A stretch of DNA of 64,000 bases from Patescibacteria group bacterium (GCA_049325535.1 JBMOKY010000001.1:1008048-1072047), one strand, 5' to 3'; positions 2,284 to 61,949 are shown, counted from the stretch's first letter. Notes: a model not told the origin generated them from the sequence alone. Program-made: numbers and translations.

Positions 2284-3468
2284 CTACTCCATCACGTACG
2301 TCTTCATCGGGGAAAACCCATTGAAATTAACGGAGCAGTACGAGGAAGTATACGCGCCAGTGGACAGCAGATAGACGCGGTCCCCCTCTTTGATATCCGC
2401 CGGTAATTTGTATTTGAATTTTTCGTACAGCGTGTCCATGGAATCGCAGGACGGTCCGGCCAGGATAACCTGTCGGGAACACTGGGCTTCGGGGTCAGCG
2501 GTAAAAATCGGATACTTCATTGATTCGTCGATAGTTTCGATGAGCCCGTTAAATTTACCCGTATCGAGATACACCCAGTCGACGTCCGCCGTGGCTGACT
2601 TCTTGGAAATCATGACGATTTCGCTGACCAGTACCCCAGCATCGGCAGTGATGCTCCGCCCGGGTTCGATAAAAATTTCCGGCATATGATCGCCAAAATC
2701 CTCGTGGAGAAAACGAGCGATTTCCTTGGCATACGTGGCTAGGGGTTGGGTCGGTTGCAGGTAGTGCGCGGGTAATCCGCCCCCGAGGTTGATCATGTGT
2801 AGCTCCACGCCCTGCTCATGCAATGAATCAAATAAATACTTCGTCTGGGCGATGGCCGTATCCCACTGCCCAATGTCGCGTTGCTGTGAGCCGACATGAA
2901 ACGACACGCCGTAGGGAACGAGTCCCAGCTGTTTGGCGCGTAACGCCAGGCGGAAGACGAGATCAGGGTGAGCGCCAAACTTCTTCGAAAGCGGCCAATC
3001 TGCCTGCCCCCCCTCGGAGAGAATACGCATGAAAATCCTGCTCCCCGGCGCCTGTCGCGCTAATTTTTCTAGGTCAGACGACGAATCAGTGGCAAACAAC
3101 CGAACCCCCCGGTCATATGCGTATTTGATATCACGTTCTTTTTTGATGGTATTACCAAAACTGATGCGCTCAGGGGAGACGCCCAATCGGAGCACCTGGT
3201 CGATCTCATTGACCGAAGCCAAATCAAAACATGCTCCCCGCTGGTGCAGCAGGCTAATGACCTCATCCAGAGGGCACGCCTTAATGGCATAGTACACGGT
3301 GGCTGCGGGAAAGTTCGTTTTCAGCTCATCATACTGTTGGGCGACTTTCTTCAGTGATATGACGAGGAGTGGAGTGAGTTTGTCAGCGGTAAACTCCTTG
3401 ATTTTCTCGAATTCCTCGCGTGTGAGATACTGTTCGAGACGATATCCATTACCATTTCCGTTGGCCAT
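2284..3468 (-). CDS. PLP-dependent fold-III decarboxylase (ornithine/lysine/arginine/DAP decarboxylase family)
   Basis: 394 aa. Contains the YAIKAC PLP-lysine motif, and HVGSQ and EPGR-like motifs typical of Orn/DAP/Arg decarboxylases. Confidence 0.8.
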   Translation of the reverse strand: MANGNGNGYRLEQYLTREEFEKIKEFTADKLTPLLVISLKKVAQQYDELKTNFPAATVYYAIKACPLDEVISLLHQRGACFDLASVNEIDQVLRLGVSPERISFGNTIKKERDIKYAYDRGVRLFATDSSSDLEKLARQAPGSRIFMRILSEGGQADWPLSKKFGAHPDLVFRLALRAKQLGLVPYGVSFHVGSQQRDIGQWDTAIAQTKYLFDSLHEQGVELHMINLGGGLPAHYLQPTQPLATYAKEIARFLHEDFGDHMPEIFIEPGRSITADAGVLVSEIVMISKKSATADVDWVYLDTGKFNGLIETIDESMKYPIFTADPEAQCSRQVILAGPSCDSMDTLYEKFKYKLPADIKEGDRVYLLSTGAYTSSYCSVNFNGFSPMKTYVME

Positions 3469-3842
3469 TGGCGTTTTTTGAAATGTTTAATTATTTATGA
3501 CTGATAGTATAATACATCCGCGGCAGAACGCAATGAAGCGGCTACTGTGCGGTAAGCCCAGATTCCCACAAACTCATAAAAATCCGGGACGAATGAATCC
3601 GTCCCGGATATGAGCTACTGGTGCCGTGCGGCAAGAAATGCTGGAGCGTGGGGCCGCCTCCCAAATTGCCTGTACTTTGTGCTGTCTGGCGCACCACCCA
3701 TTCAACCAAAGCAGATTTCGGTTGGCTTCTTAGGCGCTGTGCTCCAGCGTGATGTTAATGCGTTTCAATAGGGTAACCCTACCTTTCGAAAAAAACGCGT
3801 CGGTTAATGTACTGCTGCTCCGTCGAAACTCACGGAACTTTT

Positions 3843-4070
3843 TTAGTATACCCTATCTGATGATGTCGGGTAAAGCGTCCGACAATACCGGTCGACCAAC
3901 CAGTTCCATAAACCATATCCGAGCAAGGATCCGGCAATCATCCCGACCAAACCAGCTGCCGCTTGTACCCATGCCGGTACAGTGCAATACCATGCGATAC
4001 CTACACCAATACCGGCGCAGCTCAATACGATGATACTGACGCGCCATGCCATATACCATATGAACCGCAT
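3843..4070 (-). CDS. Small 2-TM membrane protein (hypothetical)
   Basis: An ATG at complement 4068-4070 is preceded by GGAGG with a 5-nt spacer. The product is hydrophobic (MRFIWYMAWRVSIIVLSCAGIGV...). Confidence 0.4.
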   Translation of the reverse strand: MRFIWYMAWRVSIIVLSCAGIGVGIAWYCTVPAWVQAAAGLVGMIAGSLLGYGLWNWLVDRYCRTLYPTSSDRVY

Positions 4071-4192
4071 ACATGCCTCCAAACGCCAAAGGTAGAAAAG
4101 AACAATATTCTATTGATAGTTTACGCTATCGCAGTCACCGAAAAAATGCAAGGACTTTACAGATGCTGCTCGACGTGAAATGCTAATGGTGT

Positions 4193-8890: not shown

Positions 8891-10495
8891 CTATAACACC
8901 TTCACCATGTATGTATCCTGGAGCGTAAAACCCAACTTCTCATAATACCCCCGCACGCCGATACCCGAAATGACGGCCAATTTTTTATAGCCATGTTCGC
9001 GAGCCAGCTCTTCGGCGCGCGCCATCAAGCGTTTGCCAAATCCGATGTGCTGCACCGCTTGCCGGCCGGAATCCACCGGCATCAGTTCCCCGTACGTGTG
9101 CAGTTCGCGAATCAGCGCGGTGTCAGTGGGAAACGCCAGTTCATTGCCGGTCATGGTAATCTTCTTCTTATCAAAAAACCGTATCACTTCCAATTTCTCA
9201 GTAATGCGATTGTCCCGATCCGGCAACCGCAAACGAGTAAAGGCATAGAGTTTCGAGCGATCATTATTTTCAAAACTGAGAAAATGTTCCGTGCCTTGGC
9301 CGGCGCGGTAGATACGGTCAACGAGTTCAGCCTCGCTCTCGGGTACGGCATCGCGTACTTCCCGACACCGAATGCATTGACAGACCACTCCCTGATCATG
9401 CATCAACTGACGCAAGTTAGTCACCAAATTGCCCGCTACAATATCATCACCCGGAATATCCCGTATCAAACGATTGATGCGGACATATGGTGGAATTAAA
9501 TCTTTCTTGATGCGAACCAACAGGTCGAGCAATTGATTACCTTCATATGGTTTATATTTGCCTTCTTTATACCACTGATAAATCTGCGCGCTTTTCACCA
9601 CCACGCAGGGATAAATCTTCAGCATGTCTGGCTGGAAACGTGGGTCAGTAAACACTTGTTTAAATACCTGATAATCACCTTCGGGTGTGGCGCCCGGCAA
9701 TCCCGGCATCAGGTGATATGTCACTTTAAATCCAAAATCCCGCAGCATAGCTGTCGCCCGAGCGATATTCTGCACATTGTCGTCGCGCTTAATGAGATCG
9801 AGCACTTGTTGGTCAAGCGTTTGCACGCCGATCTGCACATGGGTACAACCAAATTCCCGCATCCGCCACAGTTCTTCTTTGGTGACATAGTCTGGGCGGG
9901 TCTCCAAAGTTAAACCAATGATACGATGCTGGGCAGTCTCATTATGCTTCTGTGCGATGGCTAACGAGTCAGCGATAAATCCGTTGGCCCCGTCAAAGAG
10001 CCCTTTGATAAATTCCTCTTGGTATTTCTCATCATAATAAGACCACGTGCCGCCCAATACGATCAATTCAATTTTGTCGGCACTATGACCGTTGGCCTCA
10101 AATGCCTCAATACGAAGCTTCATCTGCTGGTACGGGTCAAAATGCAATTGGAGGGCGCGCTGGGCGGCCGGTTCCGAGGCGATATAGCTCTTCGGCATCC
10201 GCGCTTCAGTCGGACAATAGGCACAGCGTCCGGGGCAGGGATAGGGCTTAGTCAATACAGTCACCGGCGCAATACCCGATAACGTCCGCACGTCCCGCTT
10301 GCGCAAAACCCTCAGCAAGGTCGGATCCTGATCAGCGATCGGCACCTGACTGCGGTATTCTTTCAATATCTGGGCATTGGAATGTATGACACTGTCATGC
10401 TGAGTGGCTAAGTCGCGTTTTGCTTGGCGCAATGCCTCCTCGTCTGTTGGACGAATTTTCCGCAGGTCAGTAATGTAGGATTGTGATACACTCAT
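8891..10495 (-). CDS. elp3: Elp3-family radical-SAM / GNAT protein (tRNA U34 carboxymethyl modification enzyme homolog)
   Basis: Radical-SAM motif CPGRCAYCP plus a C-terminal GNAT domain (HIGFGKRLMARAEELAREHGYKKLAVISGIGVRGYYEKLGF). The longest ORF reaches 10636, but an internal ATG at complement 10493-10495 avoids the overlap with the divergent methyltransferase gene. Confidence 0.8.
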   Translation of the reverse strand: MSVSQSYITDLRKIRPTDEEALRQAKRDLATQHDSVIHSNAQILKEYRSQVPIADQDPTLLRVLRKRDVRTLSGIAPVTVLTKPYPCPGRCAYCPTEARMPKSYIASEPAAQRALQLHFDPYQQMKLRIEAFEANGHSADKIELIVLGGTWSYYDEKYQEEFIKGLFDGANGFIADSLAIAQKHNETAQHRIIGLTLETRPDYVTKEELWRMREFGCTHVQIGVQTLDQQVLDLIKRDDNVQNIARATAMLRDFGFKVTYHLMPGLPGATPEGDYQVFKQVFTDPRFQPDMLKIYPCVVVKSAQIYQWYKEGKYKPYEGNQLLDLLVRIKKDLIPPYVRINRLIRDIPGDDIVAGNLVTNLRQLMHDQGVVCQCIRCREVRDAVPESEAELVDRIYRAGQGTEHFLSFENNDRSKLYAFTRLRLPDRDNRITEKLEVIRFFDKKKITMTGNELAFPTDTALIRELHTYGELMPVDSGRQAVQHIGFGKRLMARAEELAREHGYKKLAVISGIGVRGYYEKLGFTLQDTYMVKVL

Positions 10496-31803: not shown

Positions 31804-31958
31804 TTATGTAATAAAAATATCTCCGACCAAATATGGAGGAGATGTGAGTACTGCTACACTTATCTACCTACACGATTGGTAGCCGAGAATTAGCACCCGC
31901 CCGTGACGGGTTGCCGGGGAGTCACCGGGCTCGGTCCCTACTCCCACTCGTGATAAGC
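31804..31958 (-). ncRNA. SAM-I (S-box) riboswitch with an SD-sequestering expression platform, in the metK leader
   Basis: The minus-strand RNA reads CUUAUCACGAGUGGGAGUAGGGACCGAGCCCGGUGACUCCCCGGCAACC...GGUGCUAAUUCU...GUAGAUAAG. This matches the SAM-I consensus: P1 CUUAUC/GAUAAG, GGGA...GCCC...UGA...CCGGCAACC, and GGUGC.AAUUC. Downstream, AUCUCCUCC can pair with GGAGAU adjacent to the metK start. Confidence 0.8.
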
Positions 31959-32208
31959 TATTTGATTGTCAAAAGGTAGCGTCAGTATACGTAGCGCTCA
32001 TCTTCCCGTCAAGCGCTCCAAGCATTCGGCGTGATAGATGCGCCATGAATACATGAATAAGCGTGGTCCATGCGTACGCACAGAATTCCCCGATGACTGA
32101 CATGCGTTTAGCGGAATCGAGCCGAAGCAATGCGTTTGCCCGCATTCTTCCGGTGCTTCTTTTGCGCTACCTTTTTCTTCTTATTCATAATATATGACTA
32201 ATAATATG

Positions 32209-33336: not shown

Positions 33337-33408
33337 TGCCCTCAAGAGGAGTCGAACCTCTATTACAAGATCCGGAATCTTGCGTCCTATCCATTGAACG
33401 ATGAGGGC
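33337..33408 (-). tRNA. tRNA-Arg (anticodon CCG)
   Basis: The minus-strand sequence GCCCTCATCGTTCAATGGATAGGACGCAAGATTCCGGATCTTGTAATAGAGGTTCGACTCCTCTTGAGGGCA folds as a cloverleaf. It has a 7-bp acceptor stem (GCCCTCA/TGAGGGC), T-loop GGTTCGACTCC, and anticodon loop TTCCGGA. CCA is not encoded. Confidence 0.85.
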
Positions 33409-44359: not shown

Positions 44360-45339
44360 GCACGAGCGGTACCGAGTCGCGTCACCAACAGGTCAAACAT
44401 GAGCTGCGGATTTTGTGATGATGTCTTCAGGGCGATATCAGTATCCAGCAGCATGCCATATACCATTTTCAACTCATCAATTTTGTACCGGCGTATATCC
44501 CGTACTGCTTTTTGTACCACGAATGGATGCAGCCCCAGCCGCCGGGCGATGGTGGCCGGATGCGGTTCGGTTTCGGCCAATGACCGCACTTGGAGTAAAA
44601 TGCGGAACTGGCGGATGACCATGGTCAGTATATAAAGCGGGGCGGCGCCGGAAGCAAATTGATCATGGAGTAATCGCACCGTCGTTTTCGTGTCACGCGC
44701 CGCTAATGCATCGGATAAATGAAATATATTTTCATCATAGGCCGCGCGGACCATCTGCCGAACATCCGCCGCACGAATCAACTGTCCGGCTCGGTAATTG
44801 ATGAGTTTTTCTATCTCGGCGGCCATTTCCCAGAGATCACTGCCGATCAGTCCCGCCATTTCCCCCACCGCCGACGACTCAATCCGTCCGCCCCGCCGCC
44901 GTACCTCCTGCTGGATCCATGTGGTCAGCTGCACGCCCGTGAGAAGCGGGAATGACTCCACAGTCGCTTCCTTATCCAGAAAAACAGCCAGCGGATGGGC
45001 GCTCTTCCTACCCCGGCCACGTCCCGTATCGACTTCTTCCTCGACACAGATAATAACCGCGTCGCCAGTATATTCTCCAGTGAGATAGTCGACGATAGCT
45101 GGTCCCAATTGCTTACTTTTATTTTTTGTGATGACGTTTTCGATGACCACCAGCCGTTTTGTCGCTAGAAATCCGACCTGCCCAATCGCCTGGCGCAGCG
45201 CTTCCAGAGTCAATTTCTCCCCATCAAGCACCGTAGTATTATACCCCTGCGGATCATATTTTTTTCTAAATCCAGCCTGATAATACTGCAACCGCTGGCG
45301 CAGACGGTACGTGTCGGGTCCATGGAGATACATAATCAT
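44356..45339 (-). CDS. holA: DNA polymerase III subunit delta
   Basis: 327 aa. An N-terminal clamp-loader delta-like domain with conserved leucine-rich helices. Its start overlaps the polA stop. Confidence 0.75.
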   Translation of the reverse strand: MIMYLHGPDTYRLRQRLQYYQAGFRKKYDPQGYNTTVLDGEKLTLEALRQAIGQVGFLATKRLVVIENVITKNKSKQLGPAIVDYLTGEYTGDAVIICVEEEVDTGRGRGRKSAHPLAVFLDKEATVESFPLLTGVQLTTWIQQEVRRRGGRIESSAVGEMAGLIGSDLWEMAAEIEKLINYRAGQLIRAADVRQMVRAAYDENIFHLSDALAARDTKTTVRLLHDQFASGAAPLYILTMVIRQFRILLQVRSLAETEPHPATIARRLGLHPFVVQKAVRDIRRYKIDELKMVYGMLLDTDIALKTSSQNPQLMFDLLVTRLGTARA

Positions 45340-48128
45340 AGTACAATCGGCATTAATGTTCCCCAGGTATCTCCCGCTTCTACCTCGGTCACGATCGGCA
45401 CGCGCAACGTATAAGCGCCATTCATCTGCTCGGCCACAAAAGCCGCCACCTTTTGCACCTCCATTTCAGGTACTTCAAACACTAGCTCGTCATGCACCTG
45501 TAATATCATCCGGGTTTGCGGACTGACGCTGGGCAGCTGGCGATGGATATTGATCATGGCTACTTTCAGGAGATCAGCTGCCGTACCCTGGATCGGCATA
45601 TTGACGGCCATACGTTCCGCCGCCGCCCGCACCTGGGGCATAGAAGCGTTGATATCCGGGAGATACCGTCGCCGGCCAAACAACGTCTCCACATATCCCT
45701 GCTCGTGCGCCAGGGCGATCGTCGCGGCGATGTACTCCTGGATTTCCGGATGTACCATAAAATATTTTTCGATAAACGCCCGGGCCCGGTCACGCGACAT
45801 ACCCTGCCGCGAGGCCAATCCCCAGGCACCCATACCGTACAGGATGCCAAAATTTACCTCTTTTGCTTCATAGCGCTGTTGTTTGGTGACCTGCTCCAGC
45901 GGGATTTGATTGACATCTGCGGCAGTACGGCGATGTATGTCCTCGCCGCGCCGGAATGCGTCGATCATCTTTTCGTCTCCGGCGATCGAGGCGACGATCC
46001 TGAGTTCTATCTGTGAATAATCCGCCGCCAGTATCCGATAACCGGGCTCAGCGATGAATGCCCGGCGGATCTGTGCTCCGGTCTCCGTGCGAATCGGTAT
46101 GTTCTGCAAATTTGGATCCGATGATGACAGCCGCCCGGTAGCGGTTACTGCCTGATTGAAACTGGTATGCACTCGTTTGGTCTTTGGATTGACCAATACC
46201 GGGAGCGCGTCGAGATAGGTTGATTTCAATTTGGACAGCTCGCGGTACTCCTGCAGCAGGACAATAATCGGATGCTTGTCCTTCAGTTTTTCCAGCTGGG
46301 CTGCGGCGGTCGATAGGCCGGTTTTGGTCTTGCCGATGCCCTCAGTACTGATATGCAGGCGCTCAAACAGCACCTCCTTCAGCTGGAGCGGGGAATTGAT
46401 ATTGAATTCAACGCCGGCCATGTCATATATTTTTTTTTCCAAAGTCCCGATCGTGGTGCCAGTTTTTTGAGACAGCGTATTTAAAAAAGCTGTATCAATT
46501 TTCACGCCATTTTGTTCCAGCGTAGCCAGGACCGGAATGAGCGGTACCTCCAGTTTGTCCATCAAACCAGACATATTTTTTTCCTCCAGCTCACTGGTAA
46601 AATGCTGATACAGTTGCCAGGTGTATTCCGCGTCTTCCGCGGCGTACCAGGCGATCCGATCGACGGGCACCATATCCATGGAAATCTGCTGTTTGCCTTT
46701 GCCGATGAGGTCAGTTATCGGCTCCATTTCATATCCAAAAATTTCAAAAGCGAGATTATCCAGGCTGTGCCCCCGCGAACCAGGATTCAGTAAATAGGAG
46801 GCGACCATGCTATCAAATGCAATCGGATGTAGATTGATGCCCACCTGCCAGAGCATGGCCAGATCATACTTGATGTTGTGTCCCACTTTTTTTATGGTGG
46901 GATGTTCCAGCAATAATTTCAATTGCGGGAGCCACTCCGCATGGTCGGCCACGTGCATATAATACGCCGTGCCAGACTGCCAGCAGAGGCTGACCCCGAG
47001 CAGTCGGGCGCGAAATGGATCGACGCTGGTGGATTCGGTATCCACCGCCAATACCGGCTGTCGCATGGCCGCCGCCATACAGTCAGCAAACTGTGCGCCG
47101 GTCTGAATATGGATGTATTGCGATGGGGAGGTTCGCGGCACCGTCGAGGGTATGTTCGCCGATTCCGGACGCGGAGCGACTGTAGTATTTTTTGGAATCA
47201 CCGATTCGGCATTCAGCGCATCACTTGTGGACACACTGACATCCGGCAGACGATTGAGCAGGCTCTTAAATTCCAGCTCCTGAAACAGGGAAAATACAGC
47301 CTGCCGGTCATACGGCCGTAAAGCGCAATCGTCCGGTGAGTATGTGATAGGCACGTCGCGCACGATGGTCGCCAGCCGCTTGCTCATCATTGCCTCCTTT
47401 TCTTGCTTCTGCAGGAGCGCCAAATTTCGTTTTTTGATATCCGCCGTTTTGCCGGCGGCGATAGCTTGATATATCTTTTCTACTGATTCAAACCGCCGTA
47501 ATAATTCCGTCGCCCCCTTATCACCGATGCCTTTGACCCCGGGAATATTATCAGACGGATCGCCGGCGATTGCTTTCAGGTCAATCATCTGGATGGGATC
47601 CAGGCCGTATGTATCCCGGAACGCCGCCGTATCATACGTCACCGTATCGGCAATGCCCTTGCGGAGGGTATGCACCACGGTATGCTCATCAATCAGCTGA
47701 AAGGCGTCCTTGTCTCCGGTGACGATGATATTTTCGATCCCAGCCGTTTCATTTTCCCGGGCAATAGTACCGATCACGTCATCCGCTTCAAAACCATCAA
47801 TCTCATAGACCGGAATCTGAAAAGCGGCGAGTATAGCTTTGACAATAGGAATCTGGGTATAAAATTCATCCGGGGTTTCTGCCCGTCCGGCCTTGTACTC
47901 CGCATATTCCTCGTGGCGGAATGTTTTTTTGGCCTTATCAAAAGCCACCGCGATATGCGTCGGTTTAAATTCCTTCAGCACTTTAAATAACACTGAGGTA
48001 AACCCGTACACCGCATTCACCATCTGCCCGCTCTTGGTGGTCAGGGTCGGTGGCAACGCATGGAAACTCCGGTGCAGAAGCGCATTGGCATCGATTATGA
48101 CGGCTTTTTGTCGTTTGACGGCTGACAT
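45336..48128 (-). CDS. polA: DNA polymerase I (5'-3' exonuclease, 3'-5' exonuclease and polymerase domains)
   Basis: 930 aa. N-terminal FEN-like domain, a central exonuclease-like domain, and C-terminal family A polymerase motifs A/B/C (DYSQIELR, RRxAKxxNFGxxYG, HDE). Confidence 0.95.
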   Translation of the reverse strand: MSAVKRQKAVIIDANALLHRSFHALPPTLTTKSGQMVNAVYGFTSVLFKVLKEFKPTHIAVAFDKAKKTFRHEEYAEYKAGRAETPDEFYTQIPIVKAILAAFQIPVYEIDGFEADDVIGTIARENETAGIENIIVTGDKDAFQLIDEHTVVHTLRKGIADTVTYDTAAFRDTYGLDPIQMIDLKAIAGDPSDNIPGVKGIGDKGATELLRRFESVEKIYQAIAAGKTADIKKRNLALLQKQEKEAMMSKRLATIVRDVPITYSPDDCALRPYDRQAVFSLFQELEFKSLLNRLPDVSVSTSDALNAESVIPKNTTVAPRPESANIPSTVPRTSPSQYIHIQTGAQFADCMAAAMRQPVLAVDTESTSVDPFRARLLGVSLCWQSGTAYYMHVADHAEWLPQLKLLLEHPTIKKVGHNIKYDLAMLWQVGINLHPIAFDSMVASYLLNPGSRGHSLDNLAFEIFGYEMEPITDLIGKGKQQISMDMVPVDRIAWYAAEDAEYTWQLYQHFTSELEEKNMSGLMDKLEVPLIPVLATLEQNGVKIDTAFLNTLSQKTGTTIGTLEKKIYDMAGVEFNINSPLQLKEVLFERLHISTEGIGKTKTGLSTAAAQLEKLKDKHPIIVLLQEYRELSKLKSTYLDALPVLVNPKTKRVHTSFNQAVTATGRLSSSDPNLQNIPIRTETGAQIRRAFIAEPGYRILAADYSQIELRIVASIAGDEKMIDAFRRGEDIHRRTAADVNQIPLEQVTKQQRYEAKEVNFGILYGMGAWGLASRQGMSRDRARAFIEKYFMVHPEIQEYIAATIALAHEQGYVETLFGRRRYLPDINASMPQVRAAAERMAVNMPIQGTAADLLKVAMINIHRQLPSVSPQTRMILQVHDELVFEVPEMEVQKVAAFVAEQMNGAYTLRVPIVTEVEAGDTWGTLMPIVL

Positions 48129-48268
48129 AGGTGTACCTATTGTACCAGCTTATCCGCCTTGCTGTCATGCGCCAGTCAGTCACAATCTATCAACATTGAC
48201 AAACAACATCCAAATTGGTACGGTTGCATGATTTTCCGCTCTTTAACTTTTCCCGTGGAGGAAATACC

Positions 48269-49672
48269 ATGTCCAAACAAAAATTCCTATTCTGGGCAGA
48301 CATGGTTCATCCCATGGTTCCGCCACCTCGCTACTTCGGCTGCCACCCTGGCTACCAGGCGGCATTTCGCCGCTACTCAAAGAAATCCCGCAGCGTGGCA
48401 GATCGATTCCGCGCCATGGCTGGCCAGGAAATCTCAGTGATGACGTTTGCCGACCCGCGGCATCCGGAAACGGTACTGGTACCCCGCAACCGGCCACTCA
48501 TCGCCACTGACGGGTTTCATGACCCCGCCACCCCCCGACTGCCTTTCTTCTTCAGTTCCTACGACCTCTGGATTGATCAGGACGAGCAACCGCTCTGGCA
48601 AGCACTGCACCATCCGGCACTGTTCCGCATGCAGGGCATCAGTGAACTCGGCGCCCTCATCCCTGATTTCTTTGACCAGGCGCAGTACCTGTACTTTATC
48701 GGCATGCCATTCACCCACAATCGGTGGTCGCACTTGATGCTGGCGGCGGCTATGGCCGATGTGCTGCTGGCCCGCTCCGGATGGGATATCCAGCGACGTG
48801 CCGCGCCAGTACTAACCGTGGCGACGCACGATCTGGCGCTTCCCGCCGGCGGTGACACGGTCAAACGAGTTGATCCACCGGTGCTCGATGAGGAGGCGGC
48901 GTATGCCGAAACATTGGCGCAGTGGGGGCTTGCCGACGGCTGGCGCGTCCGCTTCAATTTCGACGTCACACAGGCATCCGCCTGGGTACGCAATGAAGGC
49001 ATGATCGGGCAACTGCTCGATATCGTAGACAAGCTGTCCTACGTCACCTACGACTGCTACTACGCCGGCTATGCCACTGATGGCGCGATCCGCCGCTGGT
49101 GCGTGCGGCATCCGCTGGTGATGAATGTCTGGCAGGATTGCGGACTTTCGTCCGATGGCACCACCTGGGGTTTTGCCGATGCCGAGCGGCTGTACCATTT
49201 CCTCGTGCTTCGCGCGTTGGAACATGACGAACTGCTGCTCAATCCCGCCTCACGCTTTCTGGATACACACCTATCCACATTCGTTCGCCCGCTGTACCAG
49301 CGGGGGGTGATTACGGCAGCTATGCTGCGCCAGTGGACTGACCAGGAACTGATCTGGTTCCTGGAAAAAAAATACCCGACAGCCGACGTGTCGCTCAATT
49401 CAATCGAACCCGCCCATTTCACCTGGCGACGATTTGCCAGCGCACATCAGCGCCGTGGTTTCATCGATCAGTGCGGACATCCGATCGACCACACCGAAGA
49501 CCGAACTGGATTCAATTCCTGCATCGACTGGCCGGTATTCACCGACCGCGCGCGCAGCAGATGGCGGCCGCTGCATGACTGCATCTCCCAGCCGCGCACT
49601 GATTATCTCCTGCACCTTTCCCGGCGAACCGCCGGATACTATGCCTACTGGAAACGCCCCGCTGTTTCATAA
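48269..49672 (+). CDS. HD-domain phosphohydrolase-like protein (uncharacterised, 467 aa)
   Basis: GGAGG sits 8 nt before the ATG at 48269. The H...H...HD...D pattern is present (FTHNRWSHLMLAAAMA ... VATHDLALPAGGD). Local GC is visibly higher than in the flanking genes. Confidence 0.55.
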   Translation: MSKQKFLFWADMVHPMVPPPRYFGCHPGYQAAFRRYSKKSRSVADRFRAMAGQEISVMTFADPRHPETVLVPRNRPLIATDGFHDPATPRLPFFFSSYDLWIDQDEQPLWQALHHPALFRMQGISELGALIPDFFDQAQYLYFIGMPFTHNRWSHLMLAAAMADVLLARSGWDIQRRAAPVLTVATHDLALPAGGDTVKRVDPPVLDEEAAYAETLAQWGLADGWRVRFNFDVTQASAWVRNEGMIGQLLDIVDKLSYVTYDCYYAGYATDGAIRRWCVRHPLVMNVWQDCGLSSDGTTWGFADAERLYHFLVLRALEHDELLLNPASRFLDTHLSTFVRPLYQRGVITAAMLRQWTDQELIWFLEKKYPTADVSLNSIEPAHFTWRRFASAHQRRGFIDQCGHPIDHTEDRTGFNSCIDWPVFTDRARSRWRPLHDCISQPRTDYLLHLSRRTAGYYAYWKRPAVS

Positions 49673-49730
49673 AACAGAGGGGCGTCTTTTTTTCCTGGGG
49701 TCAGCCCGGAGAACATTCCTTGCTGCAGGC

Positions 49731-49759
49731 TTGACAAAAGCGTTTTTTTGCGCTATACT
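49731..49759 (+). promoter_or_regulatory. Near-consensus sigma70-like promoter (TTGACA - 17 nt - TATACT)
   Basis: TTGACA at 49731-49736 and TATACT at 49754-49759, with an A/T-rich spacer. Confidence 0.5.
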
Positions 49760-49765
49760 AAGGGT

Positions 49766-49880
49766 AGAAAACAAAAATAAAAAGGAAAAATACGTTCCTT
49801 CCCATTCGGGGACAATCGCTTACCACGATTTCACGAGTCAATCTCGCGGGCTGATGGTAGCGATTGTCCCCTGTTTTCTT
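49766..49880 (+). ncRNA. Candidate small RNA (~115 nt) bounded by the promoter above and an intrinsic terminator
   Basis: A 16-bp terminal stem GGGGACAAUCGCUUACC / GGUAGCGAUUGUCCCC (49808-49824 / 49856-49871) is followed by UGUUUUCUU. An internal hairpin CGAG-ucaau-CUCG is present. No ORF with an RBS. Confidence 0.4.
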
Positions 49881-49884
49881 ATAT

Positions 49885-49918
49885 ATAAAAAAGGCGCACG
49901 AGTGGTGTATCGCGCGCC
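49885..49918 (-). terminator. Intrinsic terminator for the minus-strand gene 49943-50566
   Basis: On the minus strand GGCGCGCG...CGUGCGCC hairpin followed by UUUUUU. Confidence 0.55.
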
Positions 49919-49942: not shown

Positions 49943-50566
49943 CTACCGATGAATGACATCGGTCAGGTTCCGAACCCGCCGGGACTTCTCTTTCTTGGGC
50001 GACCCCTCGATGATCCCTTCTTCGGCGGCTCCCAGGAACGCCTGGAATACTTCGATGCGCAGCTGCGGGAGCTGGCGCTGGTGCGGATACTTCACCCGCA
50101 ATGCCTCGGCTTGCGCCGCTGCCGCCGAAACCTGTTCAATGGTCACGTTGACGTGCTGAAGCGCACGCCACCACTGGTCCAGATGCGGATCGGCATCGCC
50201 CAACGCCAGACGCATGGCATAGCGGGAAAGCGTGCACTGCTGCACTTTTTCCTCAGGGAATCCCAGCACCTGCAACTCGTCCATGAGCGCCAGCACCCGG
50301 GCTTCATCCAACTTCGGATCCAGCATAGCCAGATCCAGTTCCTGAAATTTCGCCTGCGCCTGATCGAGACGCTGGCGCTCCGCGTCGAACATGAGGTCGA
50401 CGGGGTCATGAGCAAATGGATGGGCGATTCCCTGTTCTTCGTGTTCCTGATGTTCCTGATTTGGACGTCGAGTCATCCGATGACTCCTTTCCTGTTTGGT
50501 TTTTTTGGTTGCTGTTTTGAAAGGTGCTACGGTTTCTATTTGTTCTTCAACTGAGCAAAATACCAC
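49943..50566 (-). CDS. Hypothetical protein (207 aa; acidic, helical)
   Basis: ORF with terminator; I recognise no family. Confidence 0.45.
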   Translation of the reverse strand: MVFCSVEEQIETVAPFKTATKKTKQERSHRMTRRPNQEHQEHEEQGIAHPFAHDPVDLMFDAERQRLDQAQAKFQELDLAMLDPKLDEARVLALMDELQVLGFPEEKVQQCTLSRYAMRLALGDADPHLDQWWRALQHVNVTIEQVSAAAAQAEALRVKYPHQRQLPQLRIEVFQAFLGAAEEGIIEGSPKKEKSRRVRNLTDVIHR

Positions 50567-59566: not shown

Positions 59567-60289
59567 CTAGTAAGCCGTCATCATGACCGAGGCCGATTTG
59601 TCATTGTTCTGCACAACGACGAAGAGATAGGCAATATCTGCACTCCCGCTGTATAGCGTCTTATACGTATACCACGGAGCGCACCACCAGGCGGTCCACT
59701 GGTTCCACCCGGAGCTGGTATTCCGCCACGACGGGAGCATGAGGACCTCATAGTTCCAGACAATATTATTCTTGAACTTCAGGGTCTTATACCCGGCTTT
59801 GCGCGGATTGTAGTACACCCAGGCCTGATCACTGCTTTCCATGATGACAGCGTATACCCACTCATTATCCTTCAGATAATAATTGGTGATGTCGGCACCG
59901 AGAGCAGTGGCCGCCGGAATCATTTGCCGGATGTTTTCCTTATCCTCTGGTGAGATGGTGCCGGTATTGCCGAGGTCGATTACCGGATGGATCAGCGTAT
60001 ACTCGGTGCCATCGGGGAGGATAATCGTCCGTATCACGCCTTCATCAGCTGCACTACAGCTGGCCGACTTCGACAGATTGTCGACATTGATCGTATCGGA
60101 CGCTCCGATTACTTGGGAAAAATCATTCGGGAAATGCAGGTTGCCATGGTTCACCAGATCGGCGGCATGCACTGTCATTTCGGGATGAACGGCAATACTG
60201 TGCACTGTATCACCAGTCTGCGAACAGCCGGCGATGACTATGATCATGACCACCAGGGCCGGGATCATGATTTTCTTCCAATACAACAT
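59567..60289 (-). CDS. Hypothetical lipoprotein (240 aa)
   Basis: Signal peptide + lipobox VIAGC. AAGAGGTAG sits upstream of the ATG. I recognise no family. Confidence 0.55.
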   Translation of the reverse strand: MLYWKKIMIPALVVMIIVIAGCSQTGDTVHSIAVHPEMTVHAADLVNHGNLHFPNDFSQVIGASDTINVDNLSKSASCSAADEGVIRTIILPDGTEYTLIHPVIDLGNTGTISPEDKENIRQMIPAATALGADITNYYLKDNEWVYAVIMESSDQAWVYYNPRKAGYKTLKFKNNIVWNYEVLMLPSWRNTSSGWNQWTAWWCAPWYTYKTLYSGSADIAYLFVVVQNNDKSASVMMTAY

Positions 60290-60632
60290 GATAACTACCT
60301 CTTGTAGCGTATCAACAATACCCGCGAGTGCTTGATTTCAAAAAACGAGAATAAGAAGAGACCCACGTTATCTTCCTAACCGTATCCGGTCGTTTCTGAC
60401 CTCCTTTCTCACTTATAAAAGTGCAGTGTTGATGATGCGAAATGTGATTACCCACAATTCTTCGCGACGGCCTTTTTCAGAGACGGCGTCTGCGGTTCAT
60501 GCGAGAACCATTCATTCGTACGGCTCAAACAGTAACTTTAGAAAAATTTTTTCTTTTTCCGCCGTCACTTTTTTTTGATCTCAATGTTCGTTTCTACTGT
60601 AATTATAGCAAAAAAATAAGCGCTGCAAAATT

Positions 60633-61697: not shown

Positions 61698-61862
61698 GAG
61701 ATACCTCCTCGGGGTTTGACCTCGTTATTTCTATATCAATGAACCGATATGATTTTTCTGGGAAAAACAAAGAGTTTTCCATCTTACCGTCACCCCGCAC
61801 CGATTGTCAAACTGCTTGCACATTTGCTGTGGGTCACTATAATGGGTAGAATTACACCTGTG

Positions 61863-61949
61863 CTGGAGTGGCGGAATTGGCATACGCGCTAGCCTTAGGA
61901 GCTAGTGCCCGCAAGGGCTTGAGAGTTCAAATCTCTCCTCCAGCACCAA
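61863..61949 (+). tRNA. tRNA-Leu (anticodon TAG), type II with long variable arm, CCA encoded
   Basis: GCTGGAG...CTCCAGC acceptor stem, anticodon stem-loop CTAGC-CTTAGGA-GCTAG, variable arm TGCCCGCAAGGGC, T-arm GAGAG-TTCAAAT-CTCTC, 3' ACCA. Confidence 0.9.

Follow-up and report, generated by a model that had tools for sequence, protein, structure and literature searches.

The 64,000-nt stretch of Patescibacteria DNA analyzed here, hereafter called the window, carries polA, which encodes DNA polymerase I and serves as the syntenic anchor of the locus, at positions 45336-48128 on the minus strand. It is followed by a plus-strand gene for a 467-aa protein (48269-49672) and by a convergent minus-strand gene for a 177-aa protein (49943-50476), neither of which has a Pfam match. 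A metallophosphoesterase gene also flanks the locus. Between the 467-aa and 177-aa genes lies a candidate small RNA (sRNA) gene. The 467-aa gene ends in a terminator of its own on the plus strand (49655-49693), whose stem (49655-49667/49672-49684, with one mismatch) is followed by TCTTTTTTT and whose CATA loop contains the stop codon of the gene. This arrangement is also kept in the alignment with L004, a locus with a 467-aa orthologue 65% identical to that of the window. The terminator is predicted to insulate the sRNA promoter against upstream transcription. In the 467-aa protein itself, an HD-like motif can be seen by eye (FTHNRWSH...ATHDLALPAGGD). A search of 5.8 billion proteins returned only four clusters for it, yet tblastn detects a homologue with 41% identity in L008.

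A preliminary description of this DNA had proposed a free-standing small-RNA locus composed of the promoter TTGACA-17 nt-TATACT and a perfect 16-bp terminator hairpin, with no reading frame bearing a ribosome-binding site and with the terminator of the convergent gene on the opposite strand. The promoter is indeed found at 49731-49759. Its -35 hexamer TTGACA (49731-49736) and -10 hexamer TATACT (49754-49759) match 11 of 12 consensus positions, and no site in the 3 kb scanned scores higher. The 17-nt spacer (49737-49753), which holds a T run (49743-49749) and then GCGC (49750-49753), falls within the 16-18 nt spacing of sigma-70-type promoters. The position of this predicted promoter is kept among homologues, in which the -10 element is TATAAT, TATACT or TAATAT. 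We infer a transcript of ∼115 nt (49766-49880, plus strand) that starts at A49766 or G49767, 7-8 nt past the -10 element. The start and an A-block tract, AGAAAACAAAAATAAAAAGGAAAAATA (49766-49792), are followed by a pyrimidine-rich linker or 'CU box', CGTTCCTTCCCATTC (49793-49807), a 64-nt terminator hairpin (49808-49871) and a U tract, TGTTTTCTT (49872-49880), where the RNA would end. The intrinsic terminator of the convergent gene (49883-49918, minus strand), with its stem at 49918-49893 and then the tail TTTTTTATAT, was confirmed as well. By position it is the 3' boundary of the predicted sRNA and lies outside the sRNA itself.

The A-rich tract occurs nowhere else in the 64-kb window (0.03 occurrences expected), and a repeat search found no second copy of the element elsewhere in the window. 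Because the element is single-copy there, a REP or MITE element is ruled out. Three Logan contigs and one WGS contig from the same strain contain an identical copy of the window locus. The best PolA genome matches are metagenome-assembled genomes labeled 'Patescibacteria group bacterium' (75%, 67% and 65% identity), and the nearest named PolA proteins belong to Candidatus Kerfeldbacteria (73% and 64% identity). About 43 PolA clusters share at least 60% identity with the PolA of the window, and the remainder share at most 58%.

Several routes were used to collect relatives of the element. A covariance model built from two sequences, those of the window and L004, was used to search the loci of related organisms and gave matches beside polA in L007, L008 and L013. 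Seven further distinct members (L087, L088, L091, L092, L093, L095 and L097) came from scanning metagenomes with a DNA pattern that represents the -10 element and the start; another hit, L094, is AT-rich, has no -35 element and was dismissed as a chance match. Since such a search pattern biases the sample, eight more relatives were taken through PolA alone. The element is present in all six of these whose PolA is at least 60% identical (L098, L099, L100, L102, L104 and L105) and was not found in L101 (56%) and L103 (58%). Counting every protein-anchored relative with PolA identity of at least 60%, 10 of 10 carry the element. More distant Patescibacteria loci (PolA at most 58% identical) have no homologue detectable by covariance model, regular expression or nhmmer, and viral contigs gave no match. 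An nhmmer profile of the promoter and 5' domain yielded exactly one strong match per lineage in the 1.77 Mb searched. The resulting family consists of 18 distinct homologous sequences with RNA lengths of 84-126 nt. As far as these searches reach, this putative sRNA family is confined to one Kerfeldbacteria-like clade of Patescibacteria and is present in every close relative sampled.

The preliminary description had suggested comparing the conservation of the region with that of its flanks, on the reasoning that conserved flanks around an unconserved region would speak against a functional RNA. The opposite pattern was observed. From -35 to +27, the sRNA locus is 73%-92% identical to its relatives, whereas the polA DNA of the same relatives is 66%-72% identical to that of the window. 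The 60 nt upstream of the -35 element show only 44%-49% identity, which is background. Likewise, L004 can be aligned from the -35 element to the U tract, and both flanks are unalignable. By these comparisons, the unit from promoter to terminator is under strong purifying selection, with the conserved information located in the predicted unstructured 5' domain.

The promoter is part of this conserved unit. A TTGACA -35 element is found in 18 of 18 homologues, though it was never part of the search pattern (the L097 contig ends at -35, where only GTTGACA and downstream DNA are readable). The 17-nt spacing and a -10 element are likewise kept in all 18. The promoter consensus is TTGACAAA-N6-T(5-7)-G(C/T)GC-TATAMT, with TAATAT in L099. 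The T run and G(C/T)GC of the spacer are seen in every homologue with upstream DNA, including those found only through PolA, and this conserved spacer may be the site of a regulator. The T5-7 run followed by GCGC or GTGC ends at -13, which is not the register of a TGn extended -10 element.

Conservation of the spacer beyond the needs of the -35 and -10 elements could be taken to mean that the unit functions at the level of DNA or transcription. In such a scenario, a strong promoter-terminator cassette would insulate or interfere with the divergent polA promoter, or would form a boundary between convergent genes, and the RNA would be a by-product. The arrangement in L007, L013, L093, L095 and L098, where the sRNA is divergent to and directly beside polA with just ∼45-250 nt between its -35 element and the start codon of polA, is compatible with this idea. 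However, an entire gene separates polA from the element in the window, L004, L008, L091, L104 and L105, and ∼4 kb separates them in L100 and L102, and conservation is equal in these loci. Moreover, conservation reaches through ∼40 transcribed nucleotides, and the A blocks of L102 are preserved even though they have moved away from the promoter. We therefore consider a DNA-level function very improbable.

The neighborhood of the element is stable only in outline. Loose synteny between the metallophosphoesterase gene and polA is maintained, as is the element itself, and the upstream neighbor can be the divergent polA, the 467-aa gene or a large protease gene. Only some lineages have the 467-aa gene between polA and the sRNA, and the 177-aa gene is not conserved as a neighbor. 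Two peculiarities of single loci were also seen. In L005 (1555-1630, minus strand), a distant relative whose 467-aa orthologue is 37% identical, the spacer equivalent to the one that contains the sRNA in the window instead apparently holds a tRNA gene on the opposite strand, as judged by eye. In L102, a reverse-transcriptase (RVT_1) gene (3052-4071, plus strand) is located directly upstream of polA.

No reading frame is conserved across the family, in agreement with the preliminary description, which had noted that no open reading frame with a ribosome-binding site is present. The single ATG, at 49854, falls within the hairpin, and L004 and L007 have ATA in its place. Small open reading frames, including those with near-cognate start codons, were rejected as their frames differ between members, and the short-hairpin members described below have no space for an open reading frame. 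These observations also bear on the possibility that the RNA controls the downstream gene in cis, as a leader or attenuator, or that it is an mRNA encoding a very small protein. Such roles might be suggested by L087 and L088, the only two loci in which the next gene is co-oriented (∼45-65 nt past the U tract), and by L089, where the same promoter and A-rich start drive a 36-aa hydrophobic open reading frame. Yet the two co-oriented genes are unrelated to each other, and most loci have a convergent gene downstream, the identity of which changes from locus to locus. For these reasons a cis-leader role is considered excluded, and together with the mRNA alternative it retains only a trace of credibility. 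The element has the features of a trans-encoded sRNA, namely an independent predicted transcription unit with no conserved open reading frame and no constant downstream gene.

The terminator hairpin differs in detail from the perfect 16-bp helix that had been proposed. The arms of the lower stem, GGGGACAATCGCT and AGCGATTGTCCCC, form 13 perfect pairs, above which are one bulged U (49821), four more pairs (ACCA/TGGT), an internal loop and an apical 4-bp stem. The fold energy is -46.8 kcal/mol compared to -22.9 ± 3.4 kcal/mol for dinucleotide shuffles (z = -7.0), and 0 of 200 shuffles fold as well. The opposite strand is equally foldable (z = -8.0), and thus folding alone cannot pick the strand. 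The plus strand was assigned because of the conserved promoter and U tract. A minus-strand function, or a bidirectional terminator, was rejected since neither a conserved promoter nor a U run directly past the stem is present on the minus strand.

Covariation, which the preliminary description had proposed to examine, supports the hairpin. The family contains two unrelated GC-rich hairpin forms in the same place, a long form of ∼64-70 nt and a short form of ∼34-40 nt. Across eight homologues, pairing in the lower 13 pairs of the long form is 99% complete, and 5 of the 13 have compensatory double changes. None of 500 shuffles scored as well, and slid registers came nowhere near the covariation score of the true register. 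The base of the long-form hairpin is conserved (GGGGACAAUCRC), and its apical part differs completely between members and is missing in those with the short form. A U-rich run lies 3' of the hairpin in 18 of 18 homologues, with the window having an imperfect tail, UGUUUUCUU (6 U of 9). This combination of a GC-rich stem-loop, compensatory changes and an adjoining U run is that of an intrinsic (Rho-independent) terminator. The RNAalifold consensus contains this one helix alone and leaves the 5' ∼49 columns unpaired.

Two further pairings were evaluated and rejected. Single-sequence folds suggested a 5' hairpin, P1, in which the CU box pairs with the A blocks, and two apparent compensatory changes in L008, L092 and L093 were noted. 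However, the stability of P1 is no better than that of composition-preserving shuffles, its pairing (60.6%, compared to 59.5% in shuffles) shows no gain over slid registers, and it does not appear in the RNAalifold consensus. Pairing between the 5' end and the 3' U tract (AGAAAACA/UGUUUUCU, seen in the window and L087) was set aside because inspection revealed that other members do not maintain it.

An Rfam search, another check proposed at the outset, matched no family. With Rfam 15 at the gathering threshold, there was no match over the element in the window or in 10 homologous loci, and only noise appeared at a permissive E value of at most 5-10 for the window and 10 other members. The only Rfam or ARAGORN features of the window are a SAM (S-box) riboswitch (31857-31959, minus strand, 56.6 bits), tRNA-Arg(CCG) (33337-33408, minus strand) and tRNA-Leu(TAG) (61862-61948, plus strand).

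These results can be weighed against the idea of a diverged housekeeping RNA, such as 6S RNA, small SRP RNA, a piece of tmRNA or a Y-like RNA, that Rfam models have missed. The element is found throughout the clade in single copy, with a very strong predicted promoter and a stable synteny, and divergent RNAs are common in Patescibacteria. Nevertheless, nothing emerged even at the permissive Rfam threshold, ARAGORN reported two tRNAs only, and the RNAs are 84-126 nt long with a single terminator hairpin as their consensus structure. With two unrelated hairpin forms and variable apical loops, there is no conserved SRP helix-8 motif or 6S central bubble. We rejected 6S RNA, a rod of ∼160-200 nt with a central bubble, on the basis of length, the single hairpin and the lack of an RF00013-type match. 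The small SRP (4.5S) RNA was rejected as there is no Rfam match and the apical part of the hairpin is not conserved. Overall, we give the housekeeping explanation next to no weight.

It is very probable that positions 49766-49880 of the plus strand are a genuine, independently transcribed non-coding sRNA gene, judging from the conserved promoter, hairpin and U tract. The proposal of a free-standing small-RNA locus is thus upheld, apart from the description of its hairpin as a perfect 16-bp stem. The family is previously undescribed, and it is built like an ordinary trans-encoded sRNA of bacteria, which makes it a known kind of RNA. We found no description in the literature of regulatory sRNAs or of Hfq from Patescibacteria.

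The A-block tract is the most conserved part of the RNA, and its A columns are the invariant columns of the 18-sequence alignment. It consists of three to five runs of A4-6, and the one or two bases between runs differ in both kind and number (C, U, UU, G, GC or GU). The transcript start is usually (U)AGAAAAY, which leads into the A blocks, and the blocks often end in AAAGG, which resembles a Shine-Dalgarno (SD) sequence. The tract and the first ∼40 nt in general are predicted to be single-stranded in the RNAalifold consensus. In L102 (263-377, minus strand), a hairpin of ∼30 nt, CCGTGAACT...AGTTCATGG, is inserted between the start site and the A blocks. The blocks are retained despite this insertion, which argues that their conservation is not merely an effect of the promoter or initial transcript. 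In the window, AAC-AAA-AAU-AAA-AAG at 49770-49784 can be read as five consecutive A-A-N triplets. The RNA therefore has the A-R-N or A-rich repeats plus terminator U tail that characterize Hfq class II or CrcZ-like sequences.

Most homologues have a CU box of the form GCUC(Y)UU. The window, L004 and L007 carry UUCCUUCCC. In L100 and L102 the region reads UUGCUCCUUUC, and their box CUCCUUUC matches the canonical 3' end of 16S rRNA. In L013, L104 (GCCCAUU) and L097, the box is weak or absent. The SD sequences of the lineage are GAAAGGAG and GGAAGGAG. When duplexes between the linker and SD sequences were summed over 12 members, the energy was -88.4 kcal/mol, compared to -66.2 ± 6.6 kcal/mol for shuffled linkers; ∼1 in 1000 shuffles is as good, a statistic that overstates the significance because the family members are related rather than independent. 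Individually, the SD duplexes are predicted to have modest energies of -4 to -10 kcal/mol. C/U variation inside the box keeps pairing to G. The complementarity of the CU box, as predicted, favors occlusion of ribosome-binding sites, as with other C/U-rich sRNAs. A search for sRNA targets in the 64-kb window, a few percent of the genome, gave a best duplex of -23.2 kcal/mol, compared to -22 to -29 kcal/mol for shuffled queries.

The layout of the family can be compared with those of several known sRNAs. RybB and OmrA/B of enterobacteria also have their own promoter, an unstructured and conserved 5' domain and then a Rho-independent terminator, with the 5' part being most conserved and the terminator covarying or being replaced. 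They differ from the family in that there is no kinship by sequence or Rfam, the family has low-complexity A blocks and a CU box rather than a unique seed, and the hosts belong to another phylum. RsaE/RoxS and LhrC of Gram-positive bacteria share with the family a single-stranded, pyrimidine-rich motif that is complementary to ribosome-binding sites, and this likeness makes a chaperone-independent block of translation initiation plausible. Whereas these RNAs display several UCCC or CCC motifs in hairpin loops, the family has one linear box, mostly CUCUUU and usually with no CCC. Membership in their class, which calls for at least two UCCC/CCC motifs in unpaired loops, was rejected accordingly.

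ChiX, MgrR and CrcZ resemble the family in having A-R-N-type repeats upstream of a U-tailed intrinsic terminator. A-rich A-R-N repeats together with a U-tailed terminator are the layout that binds the distal and proximal faces of Hfq. CrcZ differs in being ∼400 nt long with six A-rich motifs, compared to the ∼115-nt RNA of the window, and there is no homology. A tblastn search for Hfq, CsrA, CspA and KhpA gave no match in the locus DNA examined, which is a small part of each genome.

Modules similar to the start of the sRNA are also found elsewhere in the clade. The pattern TATAMT-N5-TAGAAA occurs twice in the window, compared to 0.18 occurrences expected. A second promoter of like design (T run-GC-TATAAT-TACAG-TAGAAAC) lies at 60557-60625 on the minus strand. 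It heads a leader of ∼200 nt with A runs, extending to ∼60395, ahead of a lipoprotein-like 240-aa open reading frame (59567-60289, minus strand), and the fold of this leader is ordinary (z = -1.35). The same -10 element, start and A-rich beginning, TTGCGCTATACT-TAGGC-TAGAAAATAAAAAAAGACAAAAATT, are present in L089 (4703-4857, minus strand). There the A-rich start runs into the ATG of the 36-aa hydrophobic open reading frame, which has no SD sequence and is followed by a DksA/TraR-like zinc-finger gene. This layout indicates that the promoter and A-rich module are also used as an mRNA leader in a related organism.

The promoter and leader of the large protease gene that lies between polA and the sRNA in L104 and L091 likewise resemble those of the sRNA. 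The sequence in L104 (9889-9936, minus strand) is TTGACAAAA...TTTTTTAAGCTATAAT...GTAAAATAAAAATT...ATG, and that in L091 (9496-9533, minus strand) is TTGCGCTATGAT-TAGAC-TAGAGAATAATAAAT...ATG. This likeness could reflect duplication of a promoter or a convention of promoter design in the clade. The polA gene has an extended -10 element, TGGTACAAT, only ∼7-11 nt before its ATG (read at ∼48129-48160 in the window, at ∼9960-10003 in both L007 and L013, and upstream of 9849 in L004). TATACT is also present 10-14 nt ahead of the ATG in several other genes. With -10 elements so near the start codon, many mRNAs of the clade look leaderless or nearly so.

The A-rich, SD-poor mRNA leaders (L089, L091, L104 and ∼60.6 kb) share with the sRNA a T run, GC, TATAAT, N5, TAG and an A-rich start. 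Unlike the sRNA, they run into a start codon and an open reading frame. The sRNA lacks an open reading frame, its A-block tract is longer, and it includes a CU box and a terminator. The sRNA may have evolved from such an A-rich leader. Part of the conservation at its 5' end may also represent a promoter or leader convention of the clade, since a similar module precedes the coding genes at these four sites.

The explanation that we favor overall, with some confidence, is that the locus is a genuine sRNA gene producing a ∼115-nt RNA that acts in trans through its unstructured 5' domain, with SD pairing ranked first among its possible mechanisms. In this model, the strong sigma-70-type promoter would fire ∼7 nt past TATACT. 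The first ∼40 nt, comprising the A-block tract and then the CU-rich box, would remain single-stranded, and the GC-rich hairpin and U tract would end transcription and stabilize the 3' end. The CU box (UUCCUUCCC, elsewhere GCUCYUU or CUCCUUUC) would pair with the purine-rich SD regions (GAAAGGAG and GGAAGGAG) of target mRNAs and thereby block translation initiation. The A tract would keep the CU box accessible and might dock a protein or the 30S subunit. From the conserved architecture and the complementarity of the box, we infer both action in trans and SD pairing. Provided that the gene is genuine, SD occlusion is only tentatively put forward as the main mechanism. Counting against it is the A-block tract, the most conserved element, which SD pairing does not explain. 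On the same proviso, binding of a protein or the ribosome by the A tract is possible as the main mechanism, though doubtful.

The most serious competing proposal gives the A tract itself the role of effector. It would bind a factor that recognizes A tracts, such as Hfq (via the distal face), ribosomal protein S1 or the 30S subunit, and the RNA would serve as a sponge or as a decoy ribosome-binding site without an open reading frame. Invariant A runs with variable spacers suit recognition of A runs better than they suit a fixed pairing seed, and the blocks of L102 are kept though displaced ∼30 nt from the start site. The A-A-N triplets and U tail resemble Hfq class II sRNAs and the A-rich motifs of CrcZ. 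Furthermore, A-rich leaders stand directly before translated open reading frames in L089, L091 and L104, which suggests ribosome recruitment and makes a ribosome or S1 decoy, or a protein sponge, a serious rival. Nonetheless, the CU box is left unexplained by this proposal, none of the known sponge RNAs has just one short tract, and homologues of Hfq, CsrA and KhpA are absent from the small genome fraction covered. On balance, a sponge or decoy seems rather unlikely. A more specific version, to which we assign a somewhat lower probability, is that the RNA is a mimic of the A-rich leaders of the clade without an open reading frame. With its A blocks, SD-like AAAGG and anti-SD-like box, it would titrate the 30S subunit, S1 or an Hfq-like factor. 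If this is true, then the RNA would be a global regulator of translation capacity in the ultra-small cells of the Candidate Phyla Radiation (CPR), and a new sequestering RNA with a role comparable to those of 6S, CsrB or CrcZ.

Patescibacteria, or the Candidate Phyla Radiation, make up a very large part of bacterial diversity and have tiny genomes with few recognizable regulators. Given its clade-wide presence, its conservation above that of polA and its very strong predicted promoter, the RNA gives a tangible starting point for studying post-transcriptional control in these uncultivated bacteria. The family is ready for addition to RNA databases. Its A-block tract, which is partly common to mRNA leaders of the clade, may bear on how translation is initiated in these bacteria.
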